DNA from: Acinetobacter phage nACB1
DNA: 64,000 nucleotides
Reading direction: 5' to 3' (one strand)
Sequence record: OQ032511.1
A model generated the notes under the pieces. That model saw nothing but the letters and a program-made list of their open reading frames with translations. It made no database searches and had not been told where the DNA came from. A program made the position numbers and the translations under genes. This document shows positions 12,313 through 46,729 of this stretch, in pieces; the stretch's first letter is position 1, and the number at the start of each line of letters is the position of its first letter.

Positions 12313-12348
12313 AATAAAAATAGCCACCTTATTCAGGTGGCTTTTTTG
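12313..12348. terminator. bidirectional hairpin terminator
   Basis: aaaaa-tagccacct-tattc-aggtggct-tttttt; overlaps stop of micro-ORF 12329..12502. Confidence 0.55.
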
Positions 12349-16414: not shown

Positions 16415-18577
16415 TCAGACCTTGTTAGCTTTGTTCTGAATAGACTTCAGAATTGTAGCTTGCAGTTCATCAGCAGATAACTTATCTGCCAATTTGTCAT
16501 TAAGGCTACGAACCTTAATACCAATATCAGTAAACTGATGCCCACTTTCAACAAGCACCATTGCATAGTTATACAATTGCTTATTACGGTTTCCATCACC
16601 TGTATTGTTAAGTACCCAACGCTCTAAGTTATCAAGCTCTTTCTGATCTTTAAACTTAGCTTCGCGTTCTTCATTCTTCGACGTACGAGGAATAAACGGA
16701 AGTACATCAAATAGTTCACCTTCGTTCATGTGTACTTCTACACTGTCACAAGTTAACCATTTCTTGTTACGTTGGTTACAAGACTCGTCCATATCAAATG
16801 GTAATGCTGACATCACATTGTCCATGAACATCTTGTACTCTTCACGATCCAATTCAAGAATATAGTTCGTAGGTAATACAATACGATAGCGATCTAAACC
16901 ATCTTCGTCTTGATGACGTTTAGTGGTATAGAAGAATGCCTTGTAGTCCTTCATCAATTCCTTAGCTGTACTTAATGGCAATGTACCATCAACATCTAAG
17001 ACAATTGTATTGAAGCCTGGGATTGTGTGATCTTCACGACGATAGCCTCCATCAAAGTGATGGTTAGCCCAATGGAAACCATTGACCTTACCTAGTCGCT
17101 CTAAGTCATCAAACTTGATACGTTGCTTCTCATAACCCTCTGCAAGCTTATCGCTTGTAGAAATGATTAGTTCATCAACGTTAGTACGTTTTAATGATTC
17201 ACCACGTAAGAACAAAATATTACCGTCATACAATTTCTTGATGATGATATTGTTCTTGTATGCCCATGCTACTGCGTACTCGAGCATTTGATCTTTCTGT
17301 TGCTTAGAACCACGGAAACAAGGTAATGCTTGTTCTAGGTCTGGTAACGTAATGTTGTTACCACAGTCCGCTAAATACTTAGCAACCTTTTCGTAATCAA
17401 ACTCTGGTTGCATCAAACGTGTAAAGTCACGTCCTGAGTCTTCAGCCAATTTCATTGCTGATTCAAGATGACTAATACGAATGTTTGGTGAGTAATCACG
17501 GAATGCATATGCAGCTGCTAACTTCAATACTTTGAAGAAGCGGTTTTCTAATTCAGAACGTAAAATGTTTTCATGATCTTTGAGCTGTTCAGCACGGCGA
17601 TCACAATTGATTTTATATTCCATTAAGTAGACTGCTTCAGCTTGTTCAATACGAACAACTTTATTCAAGTTTGAGATGTCAGCTAACTGTTCTAAACCAC
17701 ATGACAATGTATCAAGTTGAGCATCATTAGAGCTATTAAACATTTGGTTTACTAACTCTGTTGCATCTGCTGCTACATTCTTTTTAACCTTAGCGGTATA
17801 ACCAAAGAAGCAGCGACGTGCATAACCCATCTCTAACATGTCAATCAAATGACGTTGAGTTGCACCTGAGTCTAATAGTTTTGACGGTGTACCGAACAAT
17901 AACATGTTCGTTGGTGTAGCACCTTCAATACGTTCAAAGCGTGTGTTTTCAGCTGATGATTTTACAAGCTTATCCTTGATCATGCCTGTGTCATACAGTT
18001 CAAGGAATGCATTGGTTACTTCTTCTTGACCAACTAAGTTAGCACCAATTTCATCAATCTGTAGATTGACTCCACCTGCTTTAGCTAAGTTAAGTTTATG
18101 ACGAAGTTGTTTAACTGCAGGAACTGTTGCAGAGTCAAATGAGAATAACAATGAACCAATAGAGTTAAACTCTTTAGTTAATCCTGCTAATTCATCATGA
18201 GGGTCTGAGCCTTTACGTGTAGCACGTGAGTTGGCTAACTTCTGCATGTTCTGTTCTGCAGCTAATGGGAACGTGTTTTCCATGAATGACTCACGGAAGC
18301 GATCAATGACGCTACGCTCAATCAGACCAGTAGAGTAACCCTTACCAGTACCTGAAGGACTTAGGTTCATTGCATAAATGTTGATGGGTAATGTGTTACC
18401 ACCCCAACCTTGAATGTTCGCATGCATCTGAGAAGCAAGTACTCCCCAGTAATACGTACACGCAATACGGAAGAACATGCGTTCTGAGTTCTGAGTCTTT
18501 GCACACATAATATCTGTGAGCATTTCAGTAACTGGGTCATAGGCCATCTGATCGAATGGCTTTAGTTGTGTTGTCAT
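16415..18577 (-). CDS. DNA primase (N4 gp43 / VirE-like, P-loop)
   Basis: 720 aa; P-loop-like SPSGTGKGYS; size and position as N4 primase. Confidence 0.45.
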   Translation of the reverse strand: MTTQLKPFDQMAYDPVTEMLTDIMCAKTQNSERMFFRIACTYYWGVLASQMHANIQGWGGNTLPINIYAMNLSPSGTGKGYSTGLIERSVIDRFRESFMENTFPLAAEQNMQKLANSRATRKGSDPHDELAGLTKEFNSIGSLLFSFDSATVPAVKQLRHKLNLAKAGGVNLQIDEIGANLVGQEEVTNAFLELYDTGMIKDKLVKSSAENTRFERIEGATPTNMLLFGTPSKLLDSGATQRHLIDMLEMGYARRCFFGYTAKVKKNVAADATELVNQMFNSSNDAQLDTLSCGLEQLADISNLNKVVRIEQAEAVYLMEYKINCDRRAEQLKDHENILRSELENRFFKVLKLAAAYAFRDYSPNIRISHLESAMKLAEDSGRDFTRLMQPEFDYEKVAKYLADCGNNITLPDLEQALPCFRGSKQQKDQMLEYAVAWAYKNNIIIKKLYDGNILFLRGESLKRTNVDELIISTSDKLAEGYEKQRIKFDDLERLGKVNGFHWANHHFDGGYRREDHTIPGFNTIVLDVDGTLPLSTAKELMKDYKAFFYTTKRHQDEDGLDRYRIVLPTNYILELDREEYKMFMDNVMSALPFDMDESCNQRNKKWLTCDSVEVHMNEGELFDVLPFIPRTSKNEEREAKFKDQKELDNLERWVLNNTGDGNRNKQLYNYAMVLVESGHQFTDIGIKVRSLNDKLADKLSADELQATILKSIQNKANKV

Positions 18578-18585
18578 CTTAGTTC

Positions 18586-19566
18586 CTAAATTTTTAATTC
18601 ACCTGCAGCTATGAGGTCATCTTTCTGACTGCATAGCGTAAATGCAGAACAATAGAGACAAGCTGTTACTTGTCCCTTCACCACGTCGATACGTCCTTTG
18701 CTACCTTTCTCAATAAAGTACTTATTGGCTTCATACATTGAACTAAAGTTCTTTTGGCTTTTACCTGTGGAAGCAGGGTTGCTGTAATACTTAAATGAGT
18801 CATCCTTACGCCACAAATCTTTATCTGTGCATAAAGGTAATTCTGATTCAGGTAAGTTCTCACATGCAATTAGACGCTGCACTTTATGTTCAACGAAGCG
18901 TTGTACTTCAGCTTCAGGAAGAAGCTCAAACTCTCGTGAGATAATTTGTGAGTGTGGGTATTTCTCTCTATCAGATAGATAACGGTTTTTATTCCAATCC
19001 ATGAAGATAAAGATAATGGACATGCGATCATCAGTAATAATATCAGGATTAAGCCAACGATAGATGCTACCTTGTAAGATATAATCTTCGTCTTTATTTC
19101 CACTAGTCCACGCAAATGTACTTGTAGTCTTGAAATCATGTACGCGACCATCTGCGATGAAGTCAAACTTACCTGTAACCTTTACTCCAAATACTTCACG
19201 GCTACTACGCTTCTCTAAATAGATAGGGATAGTTGGGCCTGTGAATGTCTCAGGATCATGGTTTACCTTAATGCGGTTAATGGCTTTCTGAGGAACGCCT
19301 AATGCAGTTAAGGTATCTGCAAGACTTGGGTCTGTCCATGTACGTTCAATTGCATCATGAATTGCTGTACCGATACGAGATTTAATCATACCGCTTACAT
19401 CTATGGTTCCCTCTCCAGGAGGTAGACGCTTAGTAAGGATGGTTTGACGAATAGGTCTCATCAATGTGGTAGCAGATAATCCTGCTTCACTTCGATCATA
19501 CGTATCATGAGCTAACCAAGCTGCAATAGGTAATGGTAGATTTGTTTGATTTGAATATTGCGCCAT
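18586..19566 (-). CDS. PD-(D/E)XK nuclease with C-terminal 4-Cys cluster (Cas4/RecB-like)
   Basis: FIADGRVHDFKTT motif; C-terminal C...CLYCSAFTLC. Confidence 0.5.
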   Translation of the reverse strand: MAQYSNQTNLPLPIAAWLAHDTYDRSEAGLSATTLMRPIRQTILTKRLPPGEGTIDVSGMIKSRIGTAIHDAIERTWTDPSLADTLTALGVPQKAINRIKVNHDPETFTGPTIPIYLEKRSSREVFGVKVTGKFDFIADGRVHDFKTTSTFAWTSGNKDEDYILQGSIYRWLNPDIITDDRMSIIFIFMDWNKNRYLSDREKYPHSQIISREFELLPEAEVQRFVEHKVQRLIACENLPESELPLCTDKDLWRKDDSFKYYSNPASTGKSQKNFSSMYEANKYFIEKGSKGRIDVVKGQVTACLYCSAFTLCSQKDDLIAAGELKI

Positions 19567-19711
19567 ATTAGGTACTCAAATTAATAGTGGGTGTTTCCCC
19601 ATAACCTGCATCATCAACTGTTATGTCTACACGACGGTAATCAATTAACACTTCAGCTTCTTGATCAAACTCATTTAATAGTTCTATGAGGTCTTTGACT
19701 TTCATATCTTC

Positions 19712-19741
19712 TCCAAAGGCAAGAAACCCACCGTGAGGTGG
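19712..19741 (-). terminator. intrinsic terminator after RNR beta gene
   Basis: cccacc-gtga-ggtggg; minus-strand downstream tttcttgccttt. Confidence 0.5.
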
Positions 19742-19749
19742 GCTTAGAA

Positions 19750-20808
19750 TTATCCGTTAAGGATTTCCTGTTCTATTTCATAATCTGTCTTAAAGTCAGT
19801 GTCAGGATATTTCCATTCACCTGTAAGACTACCAATAGAATAGTTTGTGCTTGCAGCTTCAAAGAAGTTTACAAGACTAGACTTAGCAAATAATAATCCT
19901 ACCTGAGGTAAGATTTCATCTGTAACGTCAGGGTAGATTGCATCAATACCAATATTCAATTGACTGCTACGAGCATTAGCTAATTGTTTCAAGAATACTT
20001 CGATCTGATCAATTGATAGATCACGTAGACTGCCTTTACTGTATGCACACTTAGCAAGAGCAATACCACGCTCTACAGCAGCATTAAACATCTCTTGGAT
20101 GTTGTAAATGAAGTCTGCAGTCAATACTCCAGGGTTCTCTGCAAGCTCTTGGTTGATTAACCAAGTTAAACCTTCACAATGTTGGTTTTCGTCGCGAGCT
20201 GACCATGCAACTACTTCTTGACCTAGACAAGTCATCTTACCAAAGCGTTGTGCATTGATAAGCATTAAGAAGATTCCATAGATGCCAATACCTTCACCAC
20301 AGATATGTTTAACCAACGTGTAGATACGATGAGATGCTAAACTACCATTGATAGTTTGAGCAGTCATGAACTCACGTTGATCATAGACTTCATCAATATC
20401 CAACATCTCACAGTACTGCTCTTTAGGAATACCGAACTGATCTGGTAACATATCATAACACTGTACATGAGTAGCTTCACGGTCAATGACTTTAGCTAAC
20501 CAGTAACGCTGCTCAGGTTGTGTGTACCATTGTGCTAAGTTCTCAAAGTAAGAACCTGCAACATCTACGTCAGCTTGAGTAAAGTATAGAAGTAGGAACT
20601 GATAAATAGCCTGCTCTTCTGGATTGGTTTTACCCAATTCTTTCCAGTCTTTAACATCCTGCCCTAGCTTCTTTACTTCTTCGATAGTCCAGTTCATCTT
20701 GCGATGAGTTTCAGCTAAGTTATATAACTCTGGGTATCGGAAAGGTTTCCAGTAATCACGTCCGTCAACAAGTGTTAATGCGTCGTGACTAATTTGATTA
20801 AATGCCAT
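19750..20808 (-). CDS. nrdB: ribonucleotide reductase class I small subunit (beta)
   Basis: Ferritin-like iron motifs VIDREATHVQCY and SARDENQHCEG (E..H pairs). Confidence 0.65.
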   Translation of the reverse strand: MAFNQISHDALTLVDGRDYWKPFRYPELYNLAETHRKMNWTIEEVKKLGQDVKDWKELGKTNPEEQAIYQFLLLYFTQADVDVAGSYFENLAQWYTQPEQRYWLAKVIDREATHVQCYDMLPDQFGIPKEQYCEMLDIDEVYDQREFMTAQTINGSLASHRIYTLVKHICGEGIGIYGIFLMLINAQRFGKMTCLGQEVVAWSARDENQHCEGLTWLINQELAENPGVLTADFIYNIQEMFNAAVERGIALAKCAYSKGSLRDLSIDQIEVFLKQLANARSSQLNIGIDAIYPDVTDEILPQVGLLFAKSSLVNFFEAASTNYSIGSLTGEWKYPDTDFKTDYEIEQEILNG

Positions 20809-21058
20809 TGATTAGCTCCAGTAATTCAGGGTGATAATCACGATTGTCTTTAGCCATAATACTAATTAGCTTTCGTGCAATGCTGTGTGGGGCAGTTGAA
20901 CCAAACACAGATTCAATACCTTTAAAGATATGAATATATGTTTTACGTTCAAATACTAGGATTGATTCATTTGCATCAATAGGTAAATAGGTACGAGTAC
21001 CTATTAAACTTGCAATGACCTGAGTTAGTTTATGCTCATTCACTGGTTTAACCCTCAC
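20798..21058 (-). CDS. hypothetical protein (86 aa) between RNR subunit genes
   Basis: ORF overlapping both neighbours by 11 nt. Confidence 0.4.
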   Translation of the reverse strand: MRVKPVNEHKLTQVIASLIGTRTYLPIDANESILVFERKTYIHIFKGIESVFGSTAPHSIARKLISIMAKDNRDYHPELLELINGI

Positions 21059-23045
21059 AGCTTAAGCATGCAGTAAAAATATCTGCACGGTTGTAGTCAA
21101 TAGTGTCATCTGATTTCTCAGATTTAGCGAATGCATTTGATGAAGCCAATGCCATAGTACGAATGTAGTAACGAGACTTACATCCTTTCTTCCACATTTG
21201 GAAATGAACAGCATTCACATATGAACGTGGAACACCTGGTTTCATAAACAAGTTTGTAGAGATTGCTTGGCATACATCTTTCTGTGCACATGCTACATGT
21301 TCAACAATCCACATTTGATCTACTTCAAATGCTGTACGTAATACTTTCTTCTCATGTGTATTTAAGAAGTCTAAGTGTTGTACTGAGCCTTCGTTATCTA
21401 CAATTGATTTGATTACAGCTGCATTGTTCTTACCATATTTCTCAAGACACTTGAGTAAGTACGGTTCAATGATTTGGAAAGTACCTGAGGTAGTCTGTTG
21501 TGCATATACGTTTTGGAAACGTGGTTCACGACTTGGTGTAACACCTCCACAGATTAGACTGTTGGTAGCTGTTGGAGCATCAGCTAATAAGTGTGAGTTA
21601 CGGCGACCAGACTTAGCCATATCAGGGGCTGCACCACGAGATGCACCAAGTTCATAAGTTGCTTCAAGAGCTACTTGCTTAACCCACTTGGTTACAGTGT
21701 AGGTAATGTCTAATGCTTCACGAGATTCGTAAGGTAGATCACACTGTTTAAAGTATGAGTCCCAACCCATTGAACCTAAGCCAATAGCTCGTTCTTGTTT
21801 AGCACTGAATACTGCTTTACGTAATCCCATAAAGCGATCTTGAACTACACCAATACAGATTTGTTGTAAATGGTCTTCACCAATGTACACACCTGATTCC
21901 TGCATATTCTTACGTAGTGAGTCAGCTAACTCTTCCCATGCAAAGTCTTTGGTACAAGACCAAACAGCATTCTGAATAAAGTACTCAAGAATGTTATCTA
22001 GGAACTCAACCATATCTTTGATGAATTGGCTATTACCTTTCCATTGATCATAGGTAGCCATGTTGTATGAACTTAAGCAACATACTGCTGTACGTTCTTC
22101 ATTGTTAGCCAATGTGATTTCAGTACAGATATTTACGTTGTTGAAGTCTAGCCCCAATGCCTTTTGCTCTTCAGGTAAGAAGCGGCGGCATGTGTCTTCA
22201 AACACTAAGAATGGGCAACCTGTCTCGAATGGTAATTCAAGCATTAGTTCCCATAAGTAACGAGCTGAGATAATTTCTTTGGTTACGCCTTTATGATCTA
22301 CCAATGCCCAGTCACCATCAGCTAATACTGTGTGCATGAACTTGTCAGTTACTTTAACTGCTTGGAAGATATTACGGCTACGCTTATTAGGATCACCAGA
22401 CATTTTACGTGACTCAATAAACTCTACTACTTCTGGATGGTCACAACGAATGTTACCTCCATAAACAGCACGTCTATTTGAGCCTTGGTGAGCTGCTGTT
22501 ACCATTGAATCTTCTACATGGAAGAATGGTACTAGTCCGCCAGACTTTCCTCCTGTGCTCGTTACAGAGCCTTCTGGACGTAGGTCAGACCAGTCTGCTG
22601 CATAACCTCCGCCATTGGATGCAATCCATAATGATTCAGTTAAATGATCAGCAATACCAATACGACTATCAGGCACATAACCTGTGTAGCATGAAATTGG
22701 TAATGGGCCATATACTGACTCGTAAGCCAAGTGACTAAAGTTAGCTTCAAAGTCAGTTAAGAATTTTACGCGTACTGGAGCATTAGCTAATACTGGTGAT
22801 GCAGGGCCTGCCCATTGACGCTTAAAGTAACCATACATACGTAATGCATGGGCTTCATTTGTTGCGAATGCCGTAGCACATCGCATATAAGCATCTTGGG
22901 GAGACTTCTCATTCTGAACTAAGTAGCGATCAATAACAGTAGCTTTACCTGCAGGGATCATGTGCCCATCTGCAGTGTAATCAATATGTTGAGATAATAA
23001 GCGTGACTTTAAAGGTGGATTATTTGAAGGTCGAATCATTGTCAA
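21048..23045 (-). CDS. nrdA: ribonucleotide reductase class I large subunit (alpha)
   Basis: Active-site N.CTEI motif (NVNICTEITL), C-terminal CLSCEG redox tail. Confidence 0.7.
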   Translation of the reverse strand: MTMIRPSNNPPLKSRLLSQHIDYTADGHMIPAGKATVIDRYLVQNEKSPQDAYMRCATAFATNEAHALRMYGYFKRQWAGPASPVLANAPVRVKFLTDFEANFSHLAYESVYGPLPISCYTGYVPDSRIGIADHLTESLWIASNGGGYAADWSDLRPEGSVTSTGGKSGGLVPFFHVEDSMVTAAHQGSNRRAVYGGNIRCDHPEVVEFIESRKMSGDPNKRSRNIFQAVKVTDKFMHTVLADGDWALVDHKGVTKEIISARYLWELMLELPFETGCPFLVFEDTCRRFLPEEQKALGLDFNNVNICTEITLANNEERTAVCCLSSYNMATYDQWKGNSQFIKDMVEFLDNILEYFIQNAVWSCTKDFAWEELADSLRKNMQESGVYIGEDHLQQICIGVVQDRFMGLRKAVFSAKQERAIGLGSMGWDSYFKQCDLPYESREALDITYTVTKWVKQVALEATYELGASRGAAPDMAKSGRRNSHLLADAPTATNSLICGGVTPSREPRFQNVYAQQTTSGTFQIIEPYLLKCLEKYGKNNAAVIKSIVDNEGSVQHLDFLNTHEKKVLRTAFEVDQMWIVEHVACAQKDVCQAISTNLFMKPGVPRSYVNAVHFQMWKKGCKSRYYIRTMALASSNAFAKSEKSDDTIDYNRADIFTACLSCEG

Positions 23046-23082
23046 TTCCTAAAAGAAAAGGTGCGTATACTAACAGCGAAGT

Positions 23083-23727
23083 CTAAGCTTCGCTAGTCCA
23101 TCCAAGTGCCTTTGCGACAATTGGGAGTTCATTAGTAAACACTTCTTTAGCTTGTTGAGCAATGAGCATGTGTTCCTTTTGTGTACCATTACCTGAACGT
23201 AGCGTGATGTAATGAATCCACTGACGTACGTTACCAGTCATATAAATCTTGGTTTCAGTATTGAGTGGTAAGACTTTACGCGCACATTCTTTAGCAATGC
23301 CTGCATCTAACATGTCGTTATATAAGTCTTGTGTTTCAGCAAACTGTTGTGCAATACGTTTTTCAAAGTCAGCAACAATCAACTTAGATTCTTCATCTAA
23401 GACTTCAAGAGAGTTTTGGCGATTCTTGTGATCCTGTAAACGTAGTTCAGGTACACGTGCAGGGTTCATAACTGCTGCATAACGTTGGCTAAATTCTTGA
23501 AAGAAAAAGCTACGATGACGAAGCATTTGAGCACCAATATCACGTGTAGTTGTGATCTCTAAGGTCATATGAGCATGCTCAAAGACAGACCAGTGTCCTT
23601 CACGTATACAGAAAGCTAGCAGGCCTGCTACATTATCATTGAATTGGTTTGCAGGGTTTGACACACGAGCAATAAAGCCCATGAGTTTTTCAGCATTAGA
23701 ACTAATACTGATAAGGTTTACTGACAT
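23083..23727 (-). CDS. thyX: flavin-dependent thymidylate synthase ThyX
   Basis: RHRSFFFQEFSQRY = ThyX RHR..S....S.RY signature. Confidence 0.75.
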   Translation of the reverse strand: MSVNLISISSNAEKLMGFIARVSNPANQFNDNVAGLLAFCIREGHWSVFEHAHMTLEITTTRDIGAQMLRHRSFFFQEFSQRYAAVMNPARVPELRLQDHKNRQNSLEVLDEESKLIVADFEKRIAQQFAETQDLYNDMLDAGIAKECARKVLPLNTETKIYMTGNVRQWIHYITLRSGNGTQKEHMLIAQQAKEVFTNELPIVAKALGWTSEA

Positions 23728-23730
23728 AGT

Positions 23731-23979
23731 TTATTCCTGTTCAGGTTTATACATGTGGGTTACGTAAGTTCGATACGCAACCTCATCAATAACGAAGATA
23801 CCTTCTCCGCTATATTCAACTGGAGTTTCTAGTGGTAGTACTTTGTGAAGTACTCCATCGTCATACTCTAAATAAATATCTTCTGTACCATTCTCAGTAT
23901 CATCTTGAGGATAGATACTTAGGCCAGAGGACTGACTAACTAAGAAGTCAATCTTATCTAATAGATCACGTAAGATCAT
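23731..23979 (-). CDS. hypothetical protein (82 aa)
   Basis: ORF; first gene of minus operon diverging from plus-strand late module. Confidence 0.45.
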   Translation of the reverse strand: MILRDLLDKIDFLVSQSSGLSIYPQDDTENGTEDIYLEYDDGVLHKVLPLETPVEYSGEGIFVIDEVAYRTYVTHMYKPEQE

Positions 23980-24019
23980 AATTATTCCTTGGTTTTAAAA
24001 GTCAGAAGATGGCAGGGAC

Positions 24020-24048
24020 TGCCAAACCAAACTACTCTGTGTATAATC
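24020..24048 (+). promoter_or_regulatory. sigma70-like promoter with perfect -10 (TATAAT) and weak -35 for giant fibre gene
   Basis: tgccaa-N17-TATAAT (24043..24048), GAGG RBS 7 nt before ATG 24074; weak -35 fits N4-type late promoters. Confidence 0.4.
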
Positions 24049-24073
24049 AGCTCCATAGCTATGAGGTACATAT

Positions 24074-24349
24074 ATGTCAAACCTAACCCCTGAAGATGTA
24101 AACATCCAATTAACTGAAACTCGTAACGAGCTTCGGTTAGAAGACTTACGCCTATGGCAAGGACTAGAAGATGAAAAGATTTCTCGTATTGCAGGTGATA
24201 ATGCCAACACAGAATTAAACACATTAACTAATACAGAGCTTGCTGCTCAAGAGTCTCGTCTGTCTGTTGAAGTAGTTCAACGTGAAGAAGGTGATATTCG
24301 TAACATCACTTCATTGACAGCACTTGCTCAAGCATTAGCTGATAGGTGA
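24074..24349 (+). CDS. N-terminal 90-codon segment of giant fibre-like gene, cut off by frameshift from 55-bp duplication
   Basis: Ends ...NITSLTALAQALADR*; ORF 24369.. restarts with the same peptide TALAQALADYRV. Confidence 0.6.
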   Translation: MSNLTPEDVNIQLTETRNELRLEDLRLWQGLEDEKISRIAGDNANTELNTLTNTELAAQESRLSVEVVQREEGDIRNITSLTALAQALADR

Positions 24350-24398
24350 TATTCGTAACATCACTTCATTGACAGCACTTGCTCAAGCATTAGCTGAT
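24289..24398 (+). repeat. perfect tandem duplication 2 x 55 bp
   Basis: aggtgatattcgtaacatcacttcattgacagcacttgctcaagcattagctgat occurs at 24289..24343 and 24344..24398 with no mismatch; 55 mod 3 = 1. Confidence 0.9.
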
Positions 24399-27300
24399 TA
24401 CCGCGTTAAGACTGATCTTGAAATTAATAATGAACGTATTGCGCGTCAACAGTTGGGCGTAGATTTAAACACACGTGTTGATGATTTTGTTAGTACATTT
24501 GATCATAAATTTGTAATGGTCTATCAGACTATTCAAACATATCAAGATGAGACTAACGGTAAACTCACACTGTTTGATGCACGTATTAGAAAATACGAAG
24601 AGATGCTTCAAGACATCACTACAGATTCTATTCAGATCACTATGGATAATGGTGAGATCAATATGGGTGCGTGGACTATTTTGTCTCAAGCACGTGAATG
24701 GGATTTAGAAATCTTAGCTAACTTCAAAGATTATAAAACTCAAACCGATAAAGATATTGATGAAGCTTTGAAAGATATTCAAGATAAGCTTCCTATTGAA
24801 CAAGACATTATTGATAAAGCTATTGAAGCTTTGTCTGATGCTCAGATCATCAAAGACTTAGATGCTAAGATTGATGGCAACATTGCTGACATTGATACTG
24901 TACATCAGCAGCTTATTGCTGAGGTAAACAATCGTCAAAATGAGATGATTGATTACAGTCAGACTATTGCTAATGAAATGCAGAAGAATCAGAACGCATT
25001 AGTTACTATGGTTCAGACTGAAGCTGAAGCTCGTATTGATGCATTACAGCGTGAGTCTGCTATCCGTCAACAAGAACTAGTTAACGAAGCTGCAGAGCGT
25101 AGTGCTGAGATTACAGAGCGTATTAAAGATATTGAAGCAGGTACTGGTGCAGATTTAACTGCAGTAAACCAACGTATTGATGAAGCTAATCTCTACATTG
25201 AATCTGTTAAAGATACTCTTGATACTGAGCGTGATGAACGCTTAGCAGATATTGCTACTCTTGATGATGGTTTAACTAAAGAGATTCAATCACGTAAAGA
25301 TGGTGATACTTCAATCACTACAGCTTTAAATAACTATAAAGCTTCTAATGACGTAGCTATGGCTAACTTCCGTGATGAAGTAACTGTGGTTGCAGAATCG
25401 AATGCTGCTACTGTAACTAAAGTAAACGCATTAGATGCTTCACTTAAAACTACTAATACTAAGCTTGATCAGACTACTGCTACAGCAGGTACTGCATTAG
25501 ATAAAGCTACCTTAGCTCTTACTGAGACAGGTGCTCTAGCGCAGCGTGTAACGCAGACAGAAGCTAATATTACACAGATCAATAAAGATGTAGCCACTAA
25601 AGCTAATGCTTCTACAGTGACTCTCCTAGAGTCTCGTGTGGAGACTATTGATGGTGAAGTAAAAGCATCTACTAAAGCTATTACTAAATTAACTTCTGAC
25701 TTAACTACTGTTCAAGGTGAGCTTGATCAGAAAGTAGATGCGTCTGTCTTAGACTCATATTCAACTACAGTTCAAACCGACAAAGCTATTGCAGATCGCG
25801 TACAAGAGTATGATGCGAACTTATACATTGGTGGTCAGAATATTTGGTCTGTTGTAGATCAACCTGTAACTAATGAAGCAGGTGTTGCTACTAAGACAGT
25901 AGTAAACCAAGGTGAAGAACACTATCGTATTATTATCAATTCTTTTGCATCTAACCGTATTGTTACACGTTTGGATAATGCACTTGTTGATCGTGGTTTT
26001 ATTTTTAAAATTGGTGATGACTTCACTGTATCATTTGAAGTACGTGCAAGCCGTAATGCCCCTGCATCAGGTATCTATTACTACTTTGGTGGTAGTGGAT
26101 CATTTACATCTAATTTACCTCTAACTACTGAGTGGGTACGTTATGTATTCCCATTGAAAGCAACTGGTACTGGTGTAGGAAGTGCTACACAAATGTTTGG
26201 TACAAGTTTCTTTAGCACAAGTGGTTGGGCAGTAGATGACTGGGTTGAGTTCCGTCATGTACAAATGCAACGTGGTAAGAAGGCTACTGAGTTCCAGAAA
26301 GCTACTGCTAAAGTGCAGCAAGGTATTACAACCAATGCTACAGCTATTACTGGTATCAAAGCTGAAGTAACAAACCATGAAGGTCGTATTACTTCTAACA
26401 GTAATAGCATCACTGCACTTACAAATACTGTAAGCCAAACTAATAAAGACTTAGCTACTAAAGCTGACTCTAAAGCTGTAGCTGATCTTAAATCTCAAGT
26501 AGATGTTATGGATGGTAAGATCACATCCAACTCACAATCTATTGTTATTCTTAATAATGATGTGACTACTATCAAAGGTGATATGCAGAACATGGCTACT
26601 ACTAGTGCATTACAAGCACTGGATAGTAAGGTATCTGTAATTGATGGTAAGACTACGTCTAACACTAATGCAATTACTTCTCTTCAAGGAAGTGTTAATA
26701 CTATCAATAGTACTTTAGCTACTAAAGCTGATACCTCTGCAGTTAATGCATTGAGTACTACTGTTACTCAACAAGGTACACAGATCATTGCTAACAGTAA
26801 TCAGCTTACTAACTTGAGTGCATCTATATCAATGTCTATGCCTGAAGCTAAAGTTACAGGTACGTTGGATGGTATTAATTTATTCACACCTTATATTAAC
26901 AACTCAAATATTAACTTAGTTGATGAAGCTACTGCAGTATCAGGTAAGGTAATACGTATTGGTGATAACTCAGGTAATGATAACATTGCAGGTATCAGTA
27001 ATGCTTATGTAGCAATTGATCCTAATAAGTTATACCGAGTTAAGTATCGAGTTCGTCGTGTTATTGGTGATGGTACTATTTACTTATCTGTCGTAACAAC
27101 TAATGCAGATAAGACACGTAACGTAATGCATACCAACTCTGAGACTGCACTTACTGATATTAGTAATTCATTATATTACGTGGGCAATGCCGCACCTGCC
27201 TTAGGTACATGGTTAGAGGGTGAATACTTTTTTAAAGGTAAGTCTGCAGGTACTTCTGGTGGGACAGGTACAATAGCTTCTCCTCGTACATTCCCTGCTA

Positions 27301-30300
27301 AAGCTGCATATATCCGCTTAGGTATTCTACCTAACTTTACAGTTAAAGCAGGCCAACAAGATATTGACTATATTATCTTGGAAGATTATGACGCTATGTC
27401 TTTAGGTGATGCTAATGGTACAGCCATCACTAATCTTGGTACTCGTGTAACTAATAACGAAGGTGCTATTGATGTACATAGTTCTCAGTTAACTAACCTT
27501 ACTGGACGTATTAGTACTGTTGAAGGTGGTTTAACAACTAAAGCTGATTCCTCTGCGTTGAGTGCTTTGGAAACTAAAGTTACTGCAGTTGATGGGAAGG
27601 TATCTACAAACACTAATGCCATTACTTCTTTACAAGGACGTGTTACATCTGTTGAAGGTACGTTAAGTACTAAAGCTGACGCTTCTGCATTAGCTAATTA
27701 CTACACTAAAACTCAAACTGACAGTGCAGTAGCAGGTGGTATCAATGCTTACAATACTTCGTTGAGTGTAGGCGGGGATAACTTATGGAGTCTTGAAGGT
27801 TCTACTAATTCTAACGAATTTGGTGTTACTCAAAAAGTACTACAAGATTCTACGATTGATGCTCATAGATTTACTGTGTCTAGCTTTACAACGAATATTG
27901 CACGTATCCGAAACCAAGACATGATTCCTAATGGTTATGATGGCCAATTAGCTGTTGGTGAGCAATACACACTTACATTTAAGATTCGTGCTAGTCGAGC
28001 TGCTGCTGCAGATTACTATGCTTACGTTGGTGAGACAGGCTTTCCTAATGTAACAACACCTCTTAGCTTAACTGAAGATTGGCAGACTATTACATCTACA
28101 TTTACTCTACGTGCTACAGTTTCTACAAGTATTCGTCAGATGTTCTGTGTGACTTTACGCAGTACAAATGGATGGGCTGTAAATGATTGGTATGATGTTA
28201 AAGAGATCATGCTACAGCGTGGTAATAAAGCTACTACTTACGTTAAAGCAGCTGCTAAAACCAAGCAGTTAATTGACGCTAATGCTTCAGCTATTACTAA
28301 TACGCAAGCTTCAGTAACTAACCTAGATGGTAAGCTTACTACGCTGTCTACATCAGTAACTACGCTTACAGGTCGTGTATCAACTGTTGAGAATGGTTTA
28401 TCTACTAAAGCAGATGTATCAGCTTTCAATGCATTGGATGCGCGTGTTGTACAGCAAGGTAAAGACATTGAAACTGTGTCTGCAAGTGTTACTACTGTAA
28501 ACACACGTATTGATAACTTAGCTATCAGCACTAATAACGTATTACTTAATTCTTACGGTGAACGTACAAGTGCTGCACCTACTCAACGTGAATACTTAAT
28601 GTATGAACGCAGTGTTGCACTTAAAGATTTCTATAATGAAAACTTAGATAAGTTCATTACATTAAGTTTTGAAATCAAGGTTCCTGTAGCAGGCCCTGTT
28701 CAGGTATACACAAGCAATAACTCTGCACATCAATTCAGTACAGGTATTACTATTACAGAAGCTGATGTATGGCAGAAGTTTACTTTAAAGCTTGTTCCTA
28801 GACCACATCCTACAACTCCTGAGAATGTTGCAGGTTCTACTTTAGAGTTCTATGGTACATATGGTACTGGTCGTATCCCTACTATCCGTAAAGCTATGAT
28901 GGTAGCAGGTGGTGTTGCAGCTGCATGGGAACCATCTCCACGTGATACACAGGCGAGCTTTGAAGCACAGTCTTCTGCTATCAGTACTTTGGATTCACAG
29001 ACTAAAGCATTAGATGGTCGTATCATAACTAACGCTAGTAATATCACTACATTACAAGGTCGTGTTACTACAGCGGAAGGTAAGATTACTTCTAATACAA
29101 ATGCTATTTCTGGTTTGGAAACTAAGATTACTGAAACCAACGGTAAGATAGATGCACAAGCTAATAGTGTTACTCGCTTACAGTCTCGTGTGGATAACAA
29201 TGCAGGTGCAGGTTTATCACAGGATTACTTATGTCTTGATTATGATAGTTGGTATAACCATAGTAATTTAACTAACTCAATTGCATTGGCTCCATACTTC
29301 AATCAAACACTGACAGATGGGCCTTTAGGTGCTAAAGGATTTGCTGCTACTGGTGGTACATTCTTTATGTACAACAAAACACCATTACCTACTAATAAGA
29401 CTTATCGAGTTCAGTTCTGGGCTAAGCGTAGCAGTGATACAACTGGTACTGCGTACATTACTATCTTACGTCTTAAACCAGGTGAAGCATTAAATGCTCA
29501 GTGGTATACATCTATAGCTTTATCAGCTGCAGAGTTACCACGTAATAATACTTGGACTTACATTGATAAGATTGTGAACATTACAGGCGGTACTACAACG
29601 TATCCTCTTATGTATCTTGGTTTCAGTCTTAACAATGGAGCTTCTGCAGGTACTACAGCAGCACAAGGCTTTAAAGTTACTGAGATACTTAACGTAGGTG
29701 ATACTACTGGTTTAGCTACATCTGATGCATTAACTTCATTGACTACTCGCGTAACAACTGCTGAAGGTAAAATTGATACTCAAGCAGGTCAGATTACTAG
29801 CTTAAATACTACTGTTGCAGGTAAGGCAAATGCGTCTGCTGTAACTAGTCTTGAAGCACGTGTAACTACTGCAGAAGGTAACATTACTTCTCTTACTACA
29901 AGCAGTACTAACCTTACTAACCGTATGACTGCTGCCGAAGGTAAGATCACAACTAACACCAATAACTTAACCACTATGACAAATAAGGTTACAGAGATTG
30001 ATGGGAAAGTGACTGCACAAGCTACACAGATTAACAAGGTAGAATCTACGTTAGCAGGGCAAGCAATTGGTAGTACTAACTTACACCCTGCAACTATATC
30101 AGCTACTACTTGGGAGCCTTACAGCACATCTACAGTAGCTAAAGTTACTGGTGGTTTTAAGACTGATTTAGTACGCGTAACTAAGACTGGTGGTTCTGTC
30201 GGTGGTGTGGCAACTGTAGCAGCACAACGTAAGATTAACGTACGAACTGGTACACCTATAATTGTTACAGCTAAAGTACGTGGTGATGCTATACCTAATT

Positions 30301-31838
30301 ATATTTATATGATGGGTGCATCTGGTACAGCTTCTAACGTTGCAGCTACCTCTATTGAGTTTAGTGAACCATTCGGTACTAGCTTCGTAACTATGACTGT
30401 TAAATTTAATGGTAATGGTTTTGGCTTCAGAACTAATGCATGGCTCATGATGTCTAACAATGGTGCTGCATCAGGTACTTGGTTTGAGTTTGCAGAACTT
30501 ATGGTACAGGATGGAAATACTGCAACTGCATGGTCTGACTCTTACTTAGACGTACCTGAGATTGATTTAACTGAGTATGCAAAAGCATCTGCATTAAGCT
30601 CATTAGATACTAAAGTAACTCAGATTGATGGACGTGTAACAAGCCAAGCTACTTCTATCACTCAGCTACAATCTAGTGTTGGTGACAATACATCTAAGCT
30701 TCAAGTACAAGGTGAAGTGATTGATGGATTGAAAGCTTCATACTTTGTTAAGACTGATGTGAATGGTTTGGTAGCAGGGTTTGGTTTATATAATGATGGT
30801 ACTAGTTCTGCTTTTGGTGTTAATGCTGATTACTTCTATATTGGTAAAGCATCAGGTGGTAAGAAACCATTCATTGTAACTACTTCACCTCAAACTATTG
30901 ATGGTGTTACTTATCCCGTAGGTACATGGATTCATACTGCATTGATTGCTAATGCCACTATTGGTACAGCACATATTGCAGATGCTTCTATTACCAATGC
31001 TAAGATCAATAGTCTTGATGCAGCTAAGATTACTACTGGTACTCTTGATGCAGCACGTATTAAAGTTGGTGCAGCTACTCAGTATGAGATTGGATATGAT
31101 CCAATTACTAAAGCTCGTACATTCGTAGCACAACCAGTTACTCCATACCGTGCAGGTGATATTTGGAAGAATGGTACTACTACAGCTATCTGTACTGTTA
31201 CTCGTTTGTCTGGTGCATACGTTGCAGCTGATTGGGGTAAGACTGGTGATGTAACTTCTGAGAATACTGCAGCTGATACATCTAAAGTTGGCGGTGTCGC
31301 TGCAGCTACTGTAAACCAAAATATTACTAATGCACAGACTGCGGCTACTAATGCTGCTACATTGGCAGGTAATAAAGGTGAGGTTATCTATGGAACTGCA
31401 CAGCCTGCTGCTGACAAGCGTTTAGCACAAAACCTATGGATTGATACCACTAGTAATGCTAATACGCCTAAGCGTTGGAATGGTAGCGCATGGGTAGCGG
31501 TTACAGATAAGGCAGCTACTGATGCTAAGGCTGCAGCTGATGCAGCAGATGCTAAAGCGGTAGCAGCACAAGTAACAGCTAACTCAGCTAACAACCAAGT
31601 TAATGCTTGGAAGTTCACTGGTACAACTGAGATTGATGGTGGTAAGATTCGCGCTGATACAGTAACTGCTGTACAAATGAATGTAGCTGAGCTTAGTGCT
31701 ATCACAGGTACACTTGGTACTTTAGTTACTTATAAAGACCCTGCTCAACCTAATAAGGCTCGTATGGTTATGCAAGGTAGTTTGATTACAGTGTACGATG
31801 ATAATAATGTTTTACGTGTTCGTATGGGACTTTGGTAA
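24369..31838 (+). CDS. giant fibre/tail appendage-like protein (2489 aa; ~2569 aa if the duplication is collapsed)
   Basis: ~20 copies of a ~28-aa module (TSN.NAITSLQGRVT..EGKI/TLSTKADASA) alternating with four beta-rich lectin-like domains each ending in the fibre-protein motif M/LQRGNKAT / MVQDGNTATAWSD; TTG start in ORF track is an artefact of the frameshift. Confidence 0.6.
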   Translation: MTALAQALADYRVKTDLEINNERIARQQLGVDLNTRVDDFVSTFDHKFVMVYQTIQTYQDETNGKLTLFDARIRKYEEMLQDITTDSIQITMDNGEINMGAWTILSQAREWDLEILANFKDYKTQTDKDIDEALKDIQDKLPIEQDIIDKAIEALSDAQIIKDLDAKIDGNIADIDTVHQQLIAEVNNRQNEMIDYSQTIANEMQKNQNALVTMVQTEAEARIDALQRESAIRQQELVNEAAERSAEITERIKDIEAGTGADLTAVNQRIDEANLYIESVKDTLDTERDERLADIATLDDGLTKEIQSRKDGDTSITTALNNYKASNDVAMANFRDEVTVVAESNAATVTKVNALDASLKTTNTKLDQTTATAGTALDKATLALTETGALAQRVTQTEANITQINKDVATKANASTVTLLESRVETIDGEVKASTKAITKLTSDLTTVQGELDQKVDASVLDSYSTTVQTDKAIADRVQEYDANLYIGGQNIWSVVDQPVTNEAGVATKTVVNQGEEHYRIIINSFASNRIVTRLDNALVDRGFIFKIGDDFTVSFEVRASRNAPASGIYYYFGGSGSFTSNLPLTTEWVRYVFPLKATGTGVGSATQMFGTSFFSTSGWAVDDWVEFRHVQMQRGKKATEFQKATAKVQQGITTNATAITGIKAEVTNHEGRITSNSNSITALTNTVSQTNKDLATKADSKAVADLKSQVDVMDGKITSNSQSIVILNNDVTTIKGDMQNMATTSALQALDSKVSVIDGKTTSNTNAITSLQGSVNTINSTLATKADTSAVNALSTTVTQQGTQIIANSNQLTNLSASISMSMPEAKVTGTLDGINLFTPYINNSNINLVDEATAVSGKVIRIGDNSGNDNIAGISNAYVAIDPNKLYRVKYRVRRVIGDGTIYLSVVTTNADKTRNVMHTNSETALTDISNSLYYVGNAAPALGTWLEGEYFFKGKSAGTSGGTGTIASPRTFPAKAAYIRLGILPNFTVKAGQQDIDYIILEDYDAMSLGDANGTAITNLGTRVTNNEGAIDVHSSQLTNLTGRISTVEGGLTTKADSSALSALETKVTAVDGKVSTNTNAITSLQGRVTSVEGTLSTKADASALANYYTKTQTDSAVAGGINAYNTSLSVGGDNLWSLEGSTNSNEFGVTQKVLQDSTIDAHRFTVSSFTTNIARIRNQDMIPNGYDGQLAVGEQYTLTFKIRASRAAAADYYAYVGETGFPNVTTPLSLTEDWQTITSTFTLRATVSTSIRQMFCVTLRSTNGWAVNDWYDVKEIMLQRGNKATTYVKAAAKTKQLIDANASAITNTQASVTNLDGKLTTLSTSVTTLTGRVSTVENGLSTKADVSAFNALDARVVQQGKDIETVSASVTTVNTRIDNLAISTNNVLLNSYGERTSAAPTQREYLMYERSVALKDFYNENLDKFITLSFEIKVPVAGPVQVYTSNNSAHQFSTGITITEADVWQKFTLKLVPRPHPTTPENVAGSTLEFYGTYGTGRIPTIRKAMMVAGGVAAAWEPSPRDTQASFEAQSSAISTLDSQTKALDGRIITNASNITTLQGRVTTAEGKITSNTNAISGLETKITETNGKIDAQANSVTRLQSRVDNNAGAGLSQDYLCLDYDSWYNHSNLTNSIALAPYFNQTLTDGPLGAKGFAATGGTFFMYNKTPLPTNKTYRVQFWAKRSSDTTGTAYITILRLKPGEALNAQWYTSIALSAAELPRNNTWTYIDKIVNITGGTTTYPLMYLGFSLNNGASAGTTAAQGFKVTEILNVGDTTGLATSDALTSLTTRVTTAEGKIDTQAGQITSLNTTVAGKANASAVTSLEARVTTAEGNITSLTTSSTNLTNRMTAAEGKITTNTNNLTTMTNKVTEIDGKVTAQATQINKVESTLAGQAIGSTNLHPATISATTWEPYSTSTVAKVTGGFKTDLVRVTKTGGSVGGVATVAAQRKINVRTGTPIIVTAKVRGDAIPNYIYMMGASGTASNVAATSIEFSEPFGTSFVTMTVKFNGNGFGFRTNAWLMMSNNGAASGTWFEFAELMVQDGNTATAWSDSYLDVPEIDLTEYAKASALSSLDTKVTQIDGRVTSQATSITQLQSSVGDNTSKLQVQGEVIDGLKASYFVKTDVNGLVAGFGLYNDGTSSAFGVNADYFYIGKASGGKKPFIVTTSPQTIDGVTYPVGTWIHTALIANATIGTAHIADASITNAKINSLDAAKITTGTLDAARIKVGAATQYEIGYDPITKARTFVAQPVTPYRAGDIWKNGTTTAICTVTRLSGAYVAADWGKTGDVTSENTAADTSKVGGVAAATVNQNITNAQTAATNAATLAGNKGEVIYGTAQPAADKRLAQNLWIDTTSNANTPKRWNGSAWVAVTDKAATDAKAAADAADAKAVAAQVTANSANNQVNAWKFTGTTEIDGGKIRADTVTAVQMNVAELSAITGTLGTLVTYKDPAQPNKARMVMQGSLITVYDDNNVLRVRMGLW

Positions 31839-34364: not shown

Positions 34365-34932
34365 TTTAAGTCAGTGGGAGCGTGAACGCTTTGTCTATGG
34401 TGATGCAGCAGGAGATGGTAAAGGAGACTTCTTACGCGTTCATGCTATTAAAGCAGAGCATGCAGACAATCTCTTATTCTCTTGGCTTAGTGGTGGAGCA
34501 AGTGAAGTACGTTTACCTGATGCACTTCCTATAAGTCGTGGTGGTACAGGTTCTGCTACTGTAGCAGGTACTATTCGTAACCTTGGGTACTTTGAAGATA
34601 CTAACCATGTCTTACGACGTGGAACTAAAGTATTAACGTTAGCTGATACAGGTATCTTAGACCGCTTTCAAAACTTACCTAATGCTACGTTTACTAAGCG
34701 TGCTACAGGTGAGTATGTATTGAAAGGTGTTGAACTAGACACTAAGTTGTTTGGTATGGTTTTCCCTATAACTAATCTAAACCAGTTACGTTATATTGCT
34801 ACTACTGCTTTAGGTGCTGTAGGTGAGACTATTATCAAAGTCTTTGTAGCTAACAATGCTACTAATCCTCCTAGTCCTGGAGCTGCTGTAGACTTACCTA
34901 CAGGTGTCTACATAGACATAGAATGTAAATAA
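34354..34932 (+). CDS. hypothetical protein (192 aa), last gene of plus-strand module
   Basis: ORF followed by strong terminator. Confidence 0.45.
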   Translation: MPTNLSQWERERFVYGDAAGDGKGDFLRVHAIKAEHADNLLFSWLSGGASEVRLPDALPISRGGTGSATVAGTIRNLGYFEDTNHVLRRGTKVLTLADTGILDRFQNLPNATFTKRATGEYVLKGVELDTKLFGMVFPITNLNQLRYIATTALGAVGETIIKVFVANNATNPPSPGAAVDLPTGVYIDIECK

Positions 34933-34963
34933 AAATAGCCCTCTTTTGAGGGCTTATTTTTTA
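34930..34963. terminator. bidirectional intrinsic terminator at convergence point
   Basis: aaaaa-tagccctc-tttt-gagggct-tatttttt. Confidence 0.7.
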
Positions 34964-38527: not shown

Positions 38528-38556
38528 AAGGCAGCCTAGGCTGCCTTTTTCTTTTC
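38528..38556. terminator. convergent terminator; DNAP stop codon lies in its loop
   Basis: aggcagc-ctag-gctgcct-tttttctttt. Confidence 0.6.
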
Positions 38557-39167
38557 ATGATATTTCTTCATTGCAGCATCTACTACATCACAGAGTTCAA
38601 CTTTAGTAGCTGTTCTTGGTAATGTAATACCATGAGACCAGTTAGGATAGAACAAGTCTAAGTCACCTCCAAGTTTCACTTCGTCGTGAGCAATCTCAGG
38701 TAAGTCTTGCCATTCCATCTCTTTGGTGAGATGTCTATTAACCCATTCAACAACTTCAAGTTCGTTACTAATAACGAGATAAATTGCATCATGAATTAAT
38801 GCTACTGGCATAATCTTAAGTCTGTAAGGTGATGCCCAAACTTTCTCCATGAATGCTACTGCAGCTCGGTTATTCAATAAGCCATATGATTGGCCCATAG
38901 CATTACCTGCTGTACGCATCTCTGCTTTAGCTTCATTAGAAGTAAACTTATTACCTAAGATGGTTTTCTTGAGTAATGGTGTACGTAACTTCAAACCAAA
39001 GGCTAAAGTAACATACCCTAATTTACAGGCTTCTTCTTCAATACGTTTCATAATGAAGTCATCACTGACTACATAAAGCTTGTGATACATCTCCTCAATA
39101 GCTTTCGCTACCTCAGGTGCAAAACCACAGTTCTTAACTAACGTAGACCATGTGCCCATATATGTTA
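38536..39167 (-). CDS. DNA polymerase (family A) exon 2
   Basis: Frame open upstream of annotated Met to 39189; begins (L)TYMGTW completing motif B (..FA|LTYMG vs Pol I ..FG-LIYG); contains motif C-like IHDAIY. Confidence 0.65.
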
Positions 39168-40010
39168 CATTTATGTTCAGGATAGTTCGTTAGGCTACCC
39201 CCGCTTTGTTCAAGCTGCTGTATGTCACCATACAGATCAGACTATATCATCATCCTTTCGGATGCCTTGCGCTTCCACTCACTTGAGTGTACGAGCTATC
39301 GCTCTAGTCGTTGAACCTTACTTGCATTCACTACTGCTAATACTTTCCTATTACGCTCTGCTCTTTGTTGCTTTAAAGCTTCATCAAGTTGAGCTTCTAA
39401 TCCTACCTCTTTAGCTATCTTACGAAGCTTTGTAGATAAGAATGGTACTTTATAAGGGACACGTTCAGCTAATGCTGCGTATGTCTCACCACCAAGCACA
39501 CTATGCAAGCAATCAATAAATTCTTGCTTAGTAAGTCTGTTGGTGTAAGCACGTAAACCTGCTTGTACCGCATGTTGTGAGTTTCCTACGCTATCGACCC
39601 ACTCTAAGTTAGAGTAATGGTTGTTAAGCTTATTACCATCCTTATGATTTACTTCAGGTAAACCGTGTGGATTACTCACAAATGCTTGTGCTACAAGCCT
39701 GTGTACATAGAAAGTTTCTGGTTTGTTATTCTTCCAAAGTTGTACAGTTAAATACTCTACATCCTTATGAGGATACAAACCTAAGTAATCTTCTTTGTGA
39801 TTACTGTATATGAGTCCTGATTCAGTTACTGAGTAGTTCTCATAATTTTTAATAGCTAGTGTGTTCATAAGCATCTCCTATATTTGCTATGGTGTATCTT
39901 AATAGCAAAAGTAGGTGAATGCAAGTCTTGGCTGCTGATTGTCTCATTGAGATGTCCCAGCAATTCACAAGGTTTTCATTACGTATTTCTACGTAATGGC
40001 GCAAACATTT
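39168..40010 (-). mobile_element. group I-like intron (~843 nt) with HNH homing endonuclease, splitting DNAP motif B
   Basis: Exon 1 ...KAPTFA then in-frame TAA; joining exon-1 terminal T (40011) to TA of exon 2 (39167) gives TTA=Leu and restores KAPTFALTYMG; 5' exon ends in U, intron ends in G; a P1 pairing (exon gcgu / intron gcgc) is possible. Confidence 0.6.
39296..39874 (-). CDS. intron-encoded HNH homing endonuclease (NUMOD4-like + HNH_3)
   Basis: YSVTESGLIYS N-terminal motif; VNHKDGNKLNNHYSNLEW HNH core. Confidence 0.65.
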   Translation of the reverse strand: MLMNTLAIKNYENYSVTESGLIYSNHKEDYLGLYPHKDVEYLTVQLWKNNKPETFYVHRLVAQAFVSNPHGLPEVNHKDGNKLNNHYSNLEWVDSVGNSQHAVQAGLRAYTNRLTKQEFIDCLHSVLGGETYAALAERVPYKVPFLSTKLRKIAKEVGLEAQLDEALKQQRAERNRKVLAVVNASKVQRLER

Positions 40011-43744: not shown

Positions 43745-43756
43745 ATAAAAATCTCA

Positions 43757-43787
43757 ATAAAAAATAGCTACCTGATTAGGTAGCTAT
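43757..43787 (-). terminator. intrinsic terminator
   Basis: tagctacc-tgatta-ggtagcta, minus-strand T-run attttttat. Confidence 0.6.
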
Positions 43788-43797
43788 TGGGGGTTAA

Positions 43798-45033: not shown

Positions 45034-45041
45034 TGTCTATT

Positions 45042-45079
45042 CCAAAATTAAAGATGACAACTAGAATTAACTAGTTGTC
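45042..45079 (-). terminator. hairpin terminator overlapping stop of vWA gene
   Basis: gacaactag-aattaa-ctagttgtc (9-bp stem); T-rich on minus strand downstream. Confidence 0.45.
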
Positions 45080-46685: not shown

Positions 46686-46694
46686 AACATTCCT

Positions 46695-46723: not shown

Positions 46724-46729
46724 TATTGT

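Follow-up and report, generated by a model that had tools for sequence, protein, structure and literature searches.

Phase variation at the contingency loci of Neisseria and Haemophilus surface genes proceeds by the gain or loss of short tandem repeats in their 5' coding regions. In laboratory lambda, as Hendrix and Duda reportedly described in 1992, the side-tail-fibre gene stf is frameshifted. Overlapping contig ends, finally, are a known effect in phage genomes that assemble circularly, and they need to be trimmed before the circle is re-opened; a 55-bp end overlap was trimmed from phage 132, and in a second precedent identical k-mers stood at both contig ends. Here we compare with these systems a perfect 55-bp tandem duplication that splits a giant tail-protein gene in the deposited sequence of the Acinetobacter phage nACB1, and we argue that its second copy is probably an artefact of assembly and re-orientation and not part of the phage genome.

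nACB1 is a phage of Acinetobacter beijerinckii (GenBank OQ032511; Viruses 2023;15:643, PMC10057805), and a literature search on nACB1 and OQ032511 gave no mention besides this original paper. The stretch of 64,000 nucleotides that was analyzed (the window) corresponds to positions 15,639-79,638 of the record, the compared coordinates of Supplementary Table S1 being equal to those of the window plus 15,638: the vRNAP entry at 16,716-26,714 falls at 1078-11076 of the window, and ORF84, 85 and 87 (72,807-75,934 in Table S1) fit the same offset. The window is that of an N4-like (Schitoviridae) Acinetobacter phage, with a G+C content of 38.72%, tRNAs for Pro, Tyr, Thr and Ser(TGA), and a 9999-bp ORF at 1078-11076 that encodes a 3332-aa virion RNA polymerase. 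It shares ∼75% nucleotide identity with the phages VB_ApiP_XC38 (XC38) and At2 over about half its length and is collinear with XC38. The G+C content and the set of tRNAs likewise agree with the published description of nACB1. We also considered whether the window contains a group I intron or another RNA family, but Rfam gave tRNAs only, and the idea was dropped.

The 55-nt unit AGGTGATATTCGTAACATCACTTCATTGACAGCACTTGCTCAAGCATTAGCTGAT is present in two head-to-tail copies, at 24289-24343 and 24344-24398, with zero mismatches between them. Tandem Repeats Finder describes the array as having a period of 55, 2.0 copies and 100% matches, and direct string comparison is concordant, so that the perfect tandem duplication noted in a preliminary description of this DNA is confirmed. 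The array is preceded by ...GTGAAGA and followed by TACCGCG..., and the match between the units extends by 0 bases either way: the A before copy 1 differs from the last base of the unit (T), and the first base of the unit (A) differs from the T after copy 2. There is therefore no microhomology, the mark of a slippage-type natural duplication, at the borders. Across the junction of the two copies the letters run GCATTAGCTGAT and then AGGTGATATTCG (in an alternative spelling, GCTCAAGCATTAGCTGAT and then AGGTGATATTCGTAACATC), and a single-unit arrangement would run from CAACGTGAAGA through one unit to TACCGCGTTAAGAC. The array is the sole long perfect repeat within the 64-kb window, and a chance origin is therefore excluded.

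The duplicated unit covers codons 72-90 of the tail-protein gene. The features of the locus, in window coordinates, are the following.

24011..24047, plus strand: conserved upstream element, near-invariant in XC38, At2 and one metagenomic relative.
24074..31838, plus strand: whole giant tail-protein (central fibre) gene, 2569 aa with one copy of the unit.
24074..24349, plus strand: ORF1, 91 aa, ending ...ALADR-stop; the true 5' end of the tail-protein gene, shortened by the frameshift.
24289..24343, plus strand: copy 1 of the 55-nt unit, which in the ORF1 frame gives (E)GDIRNITSLTALAQALAD, matching the single copy of the homologues.
24344..24398, plus strand: copy 2 of the 55-nt unit, identical to copy 1.
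24369..31838, plus strand: ORF2, 2489 aa, starting (L/M)TALAQALAD; the body of the same tail gene, with a TTG start that was picked mechanically.

In the ORF1 frame the opening six bases of copy 2, AGG TGA at 24344-24349, read as Arg-stop and terminate ORF1, and in the +1 frame copy 2 encodes GDIRNITSLTALAQALAD once more and then continues into the rest of the tail gene. The arrangement is as the preliminary description had it, with ORF1 ending in R-stop inside copy 2 and the reading restarting at a TTG on the peptide TALAQALAD. Its proposal that collapsing the array to one copy would fuse both ORFs was also borne out: with one copy of the unit deleted, a single open frame of 2569 codons plus stop is obtained that has no internal stop and, outside the duplication, no further stop or frameshift. 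Because 55 mod 3 is 1, the gene is in frame with 1, 4 or 7 copies and out of frame with 2 or 3, and the copy-number arithmetic given earlier for 1 to 4 copies is correct.

A unit of 55 nt, not divisible by 3 and lying within the 5' coding region of a receptor-binding-type gene, has the classical layout of a contingency locus, and this is the attraction of a reading in which the duplication is a functional feature. It would act either as a copy-number switch (1 or 4 copies ON, 2 or 3 OFF) or as a recoding site, at which the full-length fibre, either unaltered or carrying 18 inserted residues, would result from a +1 shift at GAU-AGG-UGA or from re-initiation at TTG 24369. The duplication would then be present in virion DNA and used: in one version the phage population would be a mixture in which 1-copy genomes have the fibre ON and 2-copy genomes have it OFF or N-terminally altered, the two being interconverted by 55-bp loss and rare re-duplication, and in the other a +1 shift would place the 18 residues in the N-terminal coiled region of the fibre. 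If either were true, a Schitoviridae phage would possess a heritable switch for the deployment of a 2570-aa appendage. Loss of a 55-bp copy by slippage would be frequent and would yield revertants, and a rare AGG followed by UGA is a pausing context; the AGG codon is itself made by the junction, AGG accounting for 0/367 Arg codons in the large ORFs of the phage. Even so, we regard these two versions, taken together, as highly improbable. The ORF1 and ORF2 frames overlap by 11 nt only (24339-24349), the ORF2 frame being open only from 24339, and no slippery sequence for P-site tRNA re-pairing lies in this overlap. TTG 24369 is merely the first permitted codon in the ORF2 frame; no Shine-Dalgarno sequence was found 5-10 nt before it, and the nearest Shine-Dalgarno-like sequence, AGGTGA, is 19 nt away. 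ORF2 has neither a promoter nor a ribosome-binding site of its own. A search for the hallmarks of programmed frameshifting or re-initiation thus returned neither a slippery site nor a start equipped with a ribosome-binding site, nor a two-frame layout in the relatives, and +1 frameshifting and re-initiation were rejected on the basis of the sequence.

The upstream end of the gene carries the expression signals. A hairpin, GGCAG-GGA-CTGCC, at 24011-24023 overlaps a -35-like CTGCCA, which is followed after a 17-nt spacer by TATAAT at 24042-24047, and a GAGG(T) at 24063-24067 stands six bases upstream of ATG 24074. Given that this upstream element is near-invariant and that the homologue N-termini align from the ATG of ORF1, the real gene start is at 24074. 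We considered an upstream extension from ATG 24009, the equivalent of the annotated XC38 start (MAGTAKP..., a peptide also readable in the window), and rejected it because At2 has no ATG at that place, because the window reads MAGTAKP... in another frame that ends in a stop, and because the stretch is the conserved hairpin/-35/-10 element. The annotated start of XC38, 22 codons further upstream within the promoter element, is probably wrong.

The relatives show what the locus looks like in its simpler form. At the equivalent position XC38 has an intact 'tail protein' gene of 2479 aa and At2 a 'tail protein' of 1348 aa, and the N-termini of both align with ORF1 from its ATG. The segment GDLRNIKSLTELAKALSD / GDLINVNSINALTQALSD is present once in XC38 and At2, with YRIKTDLE... 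directly after it, and DNA alignments with XC38, At2 and the metagenomic contig ERZ27284557 k141_1160101 show exactly 55 extra nt in the window, as a clean insertion. A protein search gave seven more homologues, 6/7 of which reach the N-terminus with a start equivalent to that of ORF1 and one copy of the segment; the seventh (P0005) comes from a contig of 681 nt that begins only downstream of the site; being an internal fragment, it stands outside the copy count. None of the homologues starts at the downstream ORF; wherever the N-terminus is included, the start coincides with the upstream ATG. Each of the eight relatives that span the site (XC38, At2, P0001-P0004, P0006 and P0007, of which P0002 is essentially the XC38 sequence) has a single copy of the unit, and no copy-number polymorphism was seen among them. 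The copy junction and the single-copy boundary are both absent from IMG/VR, and the whole 55-nt unit is absent from the JGI metagenomes and GTDB genomes. The exact proteins of ORF1, of thymidylate synthase and of an 82-aa neighbor had no match in the gene index, and no independent nACB1 assembly was found. Both the invariance of the relatives and the failure to find the junction in IMG/VR or the unit in the JGI and GTDB collections tell against a functional repeat, as does its own make-up: with two copies only and no microhomology, a single copy would not readily be duplicated again, so that the change runs, in effect, in one direction only. The ON/OFF switch put forward in the preliminary description is thus unsupported, there being no copy-number variation, no microhomology, two copies only and a downstream ORF without translation signals.

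The same description had called the gene fibre-like, and profile and structure matches agree. The collapsed protein matches phrog_5911 (E = 1.5e-194) and phrog_2589 (E = 2.1e-169), both 'tail protein', and Pfam gave weak coiled-coil-like matches and nothing else. Against solved structures, residues ∼2120-2310 resemble 7z4b, a tail-tip fibre protein of a podophage (E = 5e-16), and also match the central straight-fibre domain of the tip attachment protein J, and internal segments match the coiled coil of the P22 gp26 needle. The protein is conserved at its N-terminus, has long repeats of coiled-coil and beta-sandwich type, and resembles the tail-tip fibre and the central fibre of J at its C-terminus; from these matches we take the product to be a very long tail fibre that is probably trimeric. 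By family profiles and by synteny with the XC38 and At2 orthologues, the gene belongs to the Exceevirus-type giant tail-protein family, of which it is an ordinary representative, and no new biological mechanism is seen. The lengths of the homologues differ widely (589, 1348 and 2479 aa).

The split is also in the published annotation. Supplementary Table S1 lists ORF36 ('tail protein', 39,712-39,987) and ORF37 ('tail protein', 40,007-47,476), which share the best match XC38 YP_010105024.1, and the split passes without comment in the paper (PMC10057805). As these entries are exactly ORF1 and ORF2, the duplication is present in the deposited record, at 39,927-40,036. The phage was sequenced by MiSeq (2x300 bp, 80x) and assembled with the Geneious de novo assembler into a single contig, to which the reads were mapped and which was later re-oriented to a reference start or to the PhageTerm terminus (PMC10057805). 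Because the read mapping precedes the re-orientation in these methods, the paper itself documents cutting and rejoining at a stage later than the read check. PhageTerm gave 973-bp direct terminal repeats for nACB1 (PMC10057805); the last nACB1 ORF ends at 79,247 in the 80,310-bp record, the XC38 record has a 944-bp repeat at both ends, and the last bases of the window match the XC38 repeat. From these terminal-repeat data and the end of the last ORF, the nACB1 record is laid out as repeat-unique-repeat.

An artefact could have arisen from this procedure as follows. Reads from a phage with direct terminal repeats would assemble into a circle, and a linear contig cut from that circle would carry the same few dozen bases at both ends. 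Re-opening the contig at the PhageTerm terminus or at a reference start would join the old ends head to tail, and a 55-bp end overlap left untrimmed would become a perfect tandem repeat of two copies, placed arbitrarily and here falling within the giant tail-protein gene at codons 72-90. From the duplicated sequence, gene callers would predict a stub of 91 aa and a remainder of 2489 aa, whereas the real gene would be one ORF of 2569 codons, expressed from the conserved promoter and ribosome-binding site at 24019-24067. On this scheme we infer that the old contig ends were joined at 24343/24344 (record 39,981/39,982). A perfect repeat of exactly 2.0 copies with zero flanking microhomology is what is expected, because an end overlap is arbitrary, and the two copies are indeed identical, strictly adjacent and exactly two in a record that was cut and rejoined after assembly.

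Further observations lie on this side. The frame is otherwise intact, the promoter and ribosome-binding site are conserved and the relatives covering the site have one copy; the AGG codon occurs at the junction and nowhere among the other Arg codons of the large ORFs; and nACB1 makes clear plaques and has tail fibres visible by electron microscopy (PMC10057805). Post hoc, we also noted that, if the join is at 39,981/39,982, the left terminus would be at ∼39,357 of a 79,337-bp contig, and the 973-bp terminal repeat would straddle the midpoint of that contig. Between the join and the point lying opposite the terminal repeat there would then be ∼150-340 bp, a distance within which a random mutation would fall in ∼0.4-0.9% of cases. 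Growth of the contig in both directions from the repeat, with its double coverage, might place the ends there, although this is a guess for which there is no demonstrated mechanism. We also noted that 55 is the SPAdes default k, but the paper names the Geneious assembler, which is overlap-based and not a k = 55 de Bruijn assembler. The match in number is therefore unusable as evidence, and SPAdes as the specific cause was dropped; the general overlap mechanism is independent of it.

Some observations point the other way. Geneious end overlaps with 2x300-bp reads at 80x would usually be longer than 55 bp, and the authors annotated and published both pieces without flagging a problem. Reads of 300 bp span a 110-bp array easily, and a true array of that size would be assembled correctly at 80x. 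The main rival reading is that the duplication is real, arose spontaneously and very recently, and was the majority allele in the sequenced stock, where it would inactivate or severely reduce the giant fibre, which would then be dispensable on the laboratory host. Its presence in the deposited record and the published annotation is in keeping with this, the lack of any other stop or frameshift in the gene is consistent with a very young lesion, and the homologue lengths suggest a plastic and possibly accessory fibre. Yet the border microhomology usual for slippage-type duplications is missing, all the relatives share a conserved gene, promoter and N-terminus, ORF2 lacks a usable ribosome-binding site, a null allele would need to have swept the stock, and a documented processing step yields exactly such a pattern. 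We therefore consider a real duplication possible but rather unlikely. Of the three explanations offered in the preliminary description, an assembly artefact is the best supported, on the strength of the documented re-orientation; a recent inactivating duplication is less likely, and the switch is unsupported.

If the second copy is an artefact, as we believe to be the likely case, OQ032511 is 55 bp too long, and ORF36 and ORF37 merge into one 2569-aa tail protein whose gene is the largest structural gene of the phage after that of the virion RNA polymerase. Of the database proteins derived from the record, the 91-aa stub would then be meaningless, and the other would be a fibre truncated at its N-terminus, with a TTG start that is false. 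A cheap filter for genome scans would follow, in which a perfect two-copy repeat, free of microhomology and splitting a conserved and otherwise intact gene in a re-oriented record, is presumed to be a circularisation scar. If the duplication is real, nACB1 can form plaques on Acinetobacter beijerinckii without the giant fibre, which would be of modest host-range interest.

Set beside the described systems, the locus is closest in gene content to gp34 of XC38 (QFR59721.1 / YP_010105024.1; Schitoviridae, Exceevirus), an orthologous gene at the same place with the same promoter element, both genes being divergent from a thymidylate synthase and ribonucleotide reductase block. The XC38 protein has 2479 aa against 2569 aa for the collapsed nACB1 protein, and its N-terminal sequence ...VVQREEGDLRNIKSLTELAKALSDYRIKTDLEINNE... 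has the segment once; the XC38 gene is intact, whereas the deposited nACB1 gene is split by the 55-bp insertion. With the contingency loci the nACB1 array shares a unit indivisible by three, a frame set by copy number and a location close to where a surface or adsorption gene begins, but those loci have many copies of 1-7-nt units that are polymorphic among strains, whereas nACB1 has two 55-nt copies and its relatives are invariant. The stf gene of lambda offers the precedent of a viable laboratory phage in which a long accessory fibre gene was split into two ORFs during propagation; that lesion, however, is a single-base change that was experimentally verified, whereas the one in nACB1 is a perfect 55-bp duplication known from the record alone. 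Untrimmed circular-contig overlaps in re-oriented phage and plasmid records leave a direct repeat of some tens of bases in two perfect copies, and with these scars the nACB1 repeat has in common an arbitrary position, the lack of microhomology and the disruption of the resident gene; it differs from them in that, with Geneious, the software does not predict the overlap length, and in that the original end positions are undocumented. As a kind of object, the nACB1 repeat is most likely the well-known circularisation scar of re-oriented assemblies.

The junction between the two copies of the 55-bp unit that split the giant tail-protein gene (window 24343/24344, corresponding to positions 39,981/39,982 of OQ032511) lies, when the genome is drawn as a circle, almost directly across from the 973-bp terminal repeat, at an offset of ∼150-340 bp, in 79.3 kb, from the exactly opposite point. 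The chance of the duplication falling so near this point is ∼0.4-0.9%, for a coincidence that was noticed post hoc. The position would fit a processing origin, in which a contig with an untrimmed end overlap may have been re-oriented after assembly. The final ∼300 bases of the window (∼63,700-64,000) belong to the 973-bp direct terminal repeat of nACB1, in its right-hand copy. XC38 has a terminal repeat of 944 bp, and positions 217-333 of it match window 63,878-63,994.

The DNA polymerase is also found in separate pieces, with an intervening ORF.

38536-42003, minus strand: DNA polymerase, in two pieces
38536-39159, minus strand: DNA polymerase piece, 207 aa
39296-39874: homing-endonuclease ORF between the pieces
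40009-42003, minus strand: DNA polymerase piece, 664 aa

The two pieces, ORF53 and ORF55 in Table S1 of the nACB1 paper, share one XC38 protein as their best match (PMC10057805), and Rfam reported no group I intron at the gathering threshold. The polymerase may have been split by a free-standing homing endonuclease.

Outside the window, the sister genome nACB2 (OQ032512), from the same study, has a possible split gene in the ORF21-23 region of Table S2. Two adjacent short ORFs there, of 171 and 99 aa, are each annotated as "tail sheath," match one common Ralstonia phage protein, and adjoin a 536-aa sheath gene (PMC10057805), an arrangement that may represent another split gene.

Several smaller elements are present elsewhere in the window.

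12313-12346, 34928-34961 and 54068-54101: three copies of a AATAAAAATAGCC...stem-loop...TTTTT element
45743-45800: imperfect tandem repeat of a 30-nt unit (82% matches over 1.9 copies), within minus-strand ORF 45071-46285
49816-50143, minus strand: cluster of four tRNAs

All three copies of the stem-loop element are sited where gene blocks end, and they look like a family of intrinsic terminators, possibly bidirectional, sharing an A-rich leader. The ORF bearing the 30-nt repeat is listed in Table S1 as a metallopeptidase-domain protein (PMC10057805). The fourth tRNA, given as "undetermined" in the nACB1 paper (PMC10057805), is tRNA-Ser(TGA) by ARAGORN, with an unusual anticodon position (32); it had no match to the Rfam tRNA model at the gathering score, which the other three of the four matched.

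Upstream of the tail gene lies an intergenic element comprising a hairpin, GGCAG-GGA-CTGCC, a -35-like CTGCCA that overlaps it, 17 nt, and TATAAT.

Window 24011-24047: nACB1 element
L001 (XC38) ∼8670-8710: XC38 counterpart
L002 ∼8480-8520 and L003 ∼1300-1340: counterparts in two further relatives

This element occurs as a single exact copy in the window and is nearly invariant in four phages with ∼75% identity elsewhere, its conservation being far above that of the genes on either side. For the XC38 tail protein, the start given in the annotation (MAGTAKPKDYVYNQLHDYEVTI-M...) falls within it (L001 8668-8733, XC38 39,109-39,174); At2 has no ATG at the matching position, and the matching bases of nACB1 are in a different frame. 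The XC38 start is probably annotated 22 codons too far upstream. With its 5-bp stem and 3-nt loop, the nACB1 hairpin is like the N4 virion-RNA-polymerase promoters in shape.
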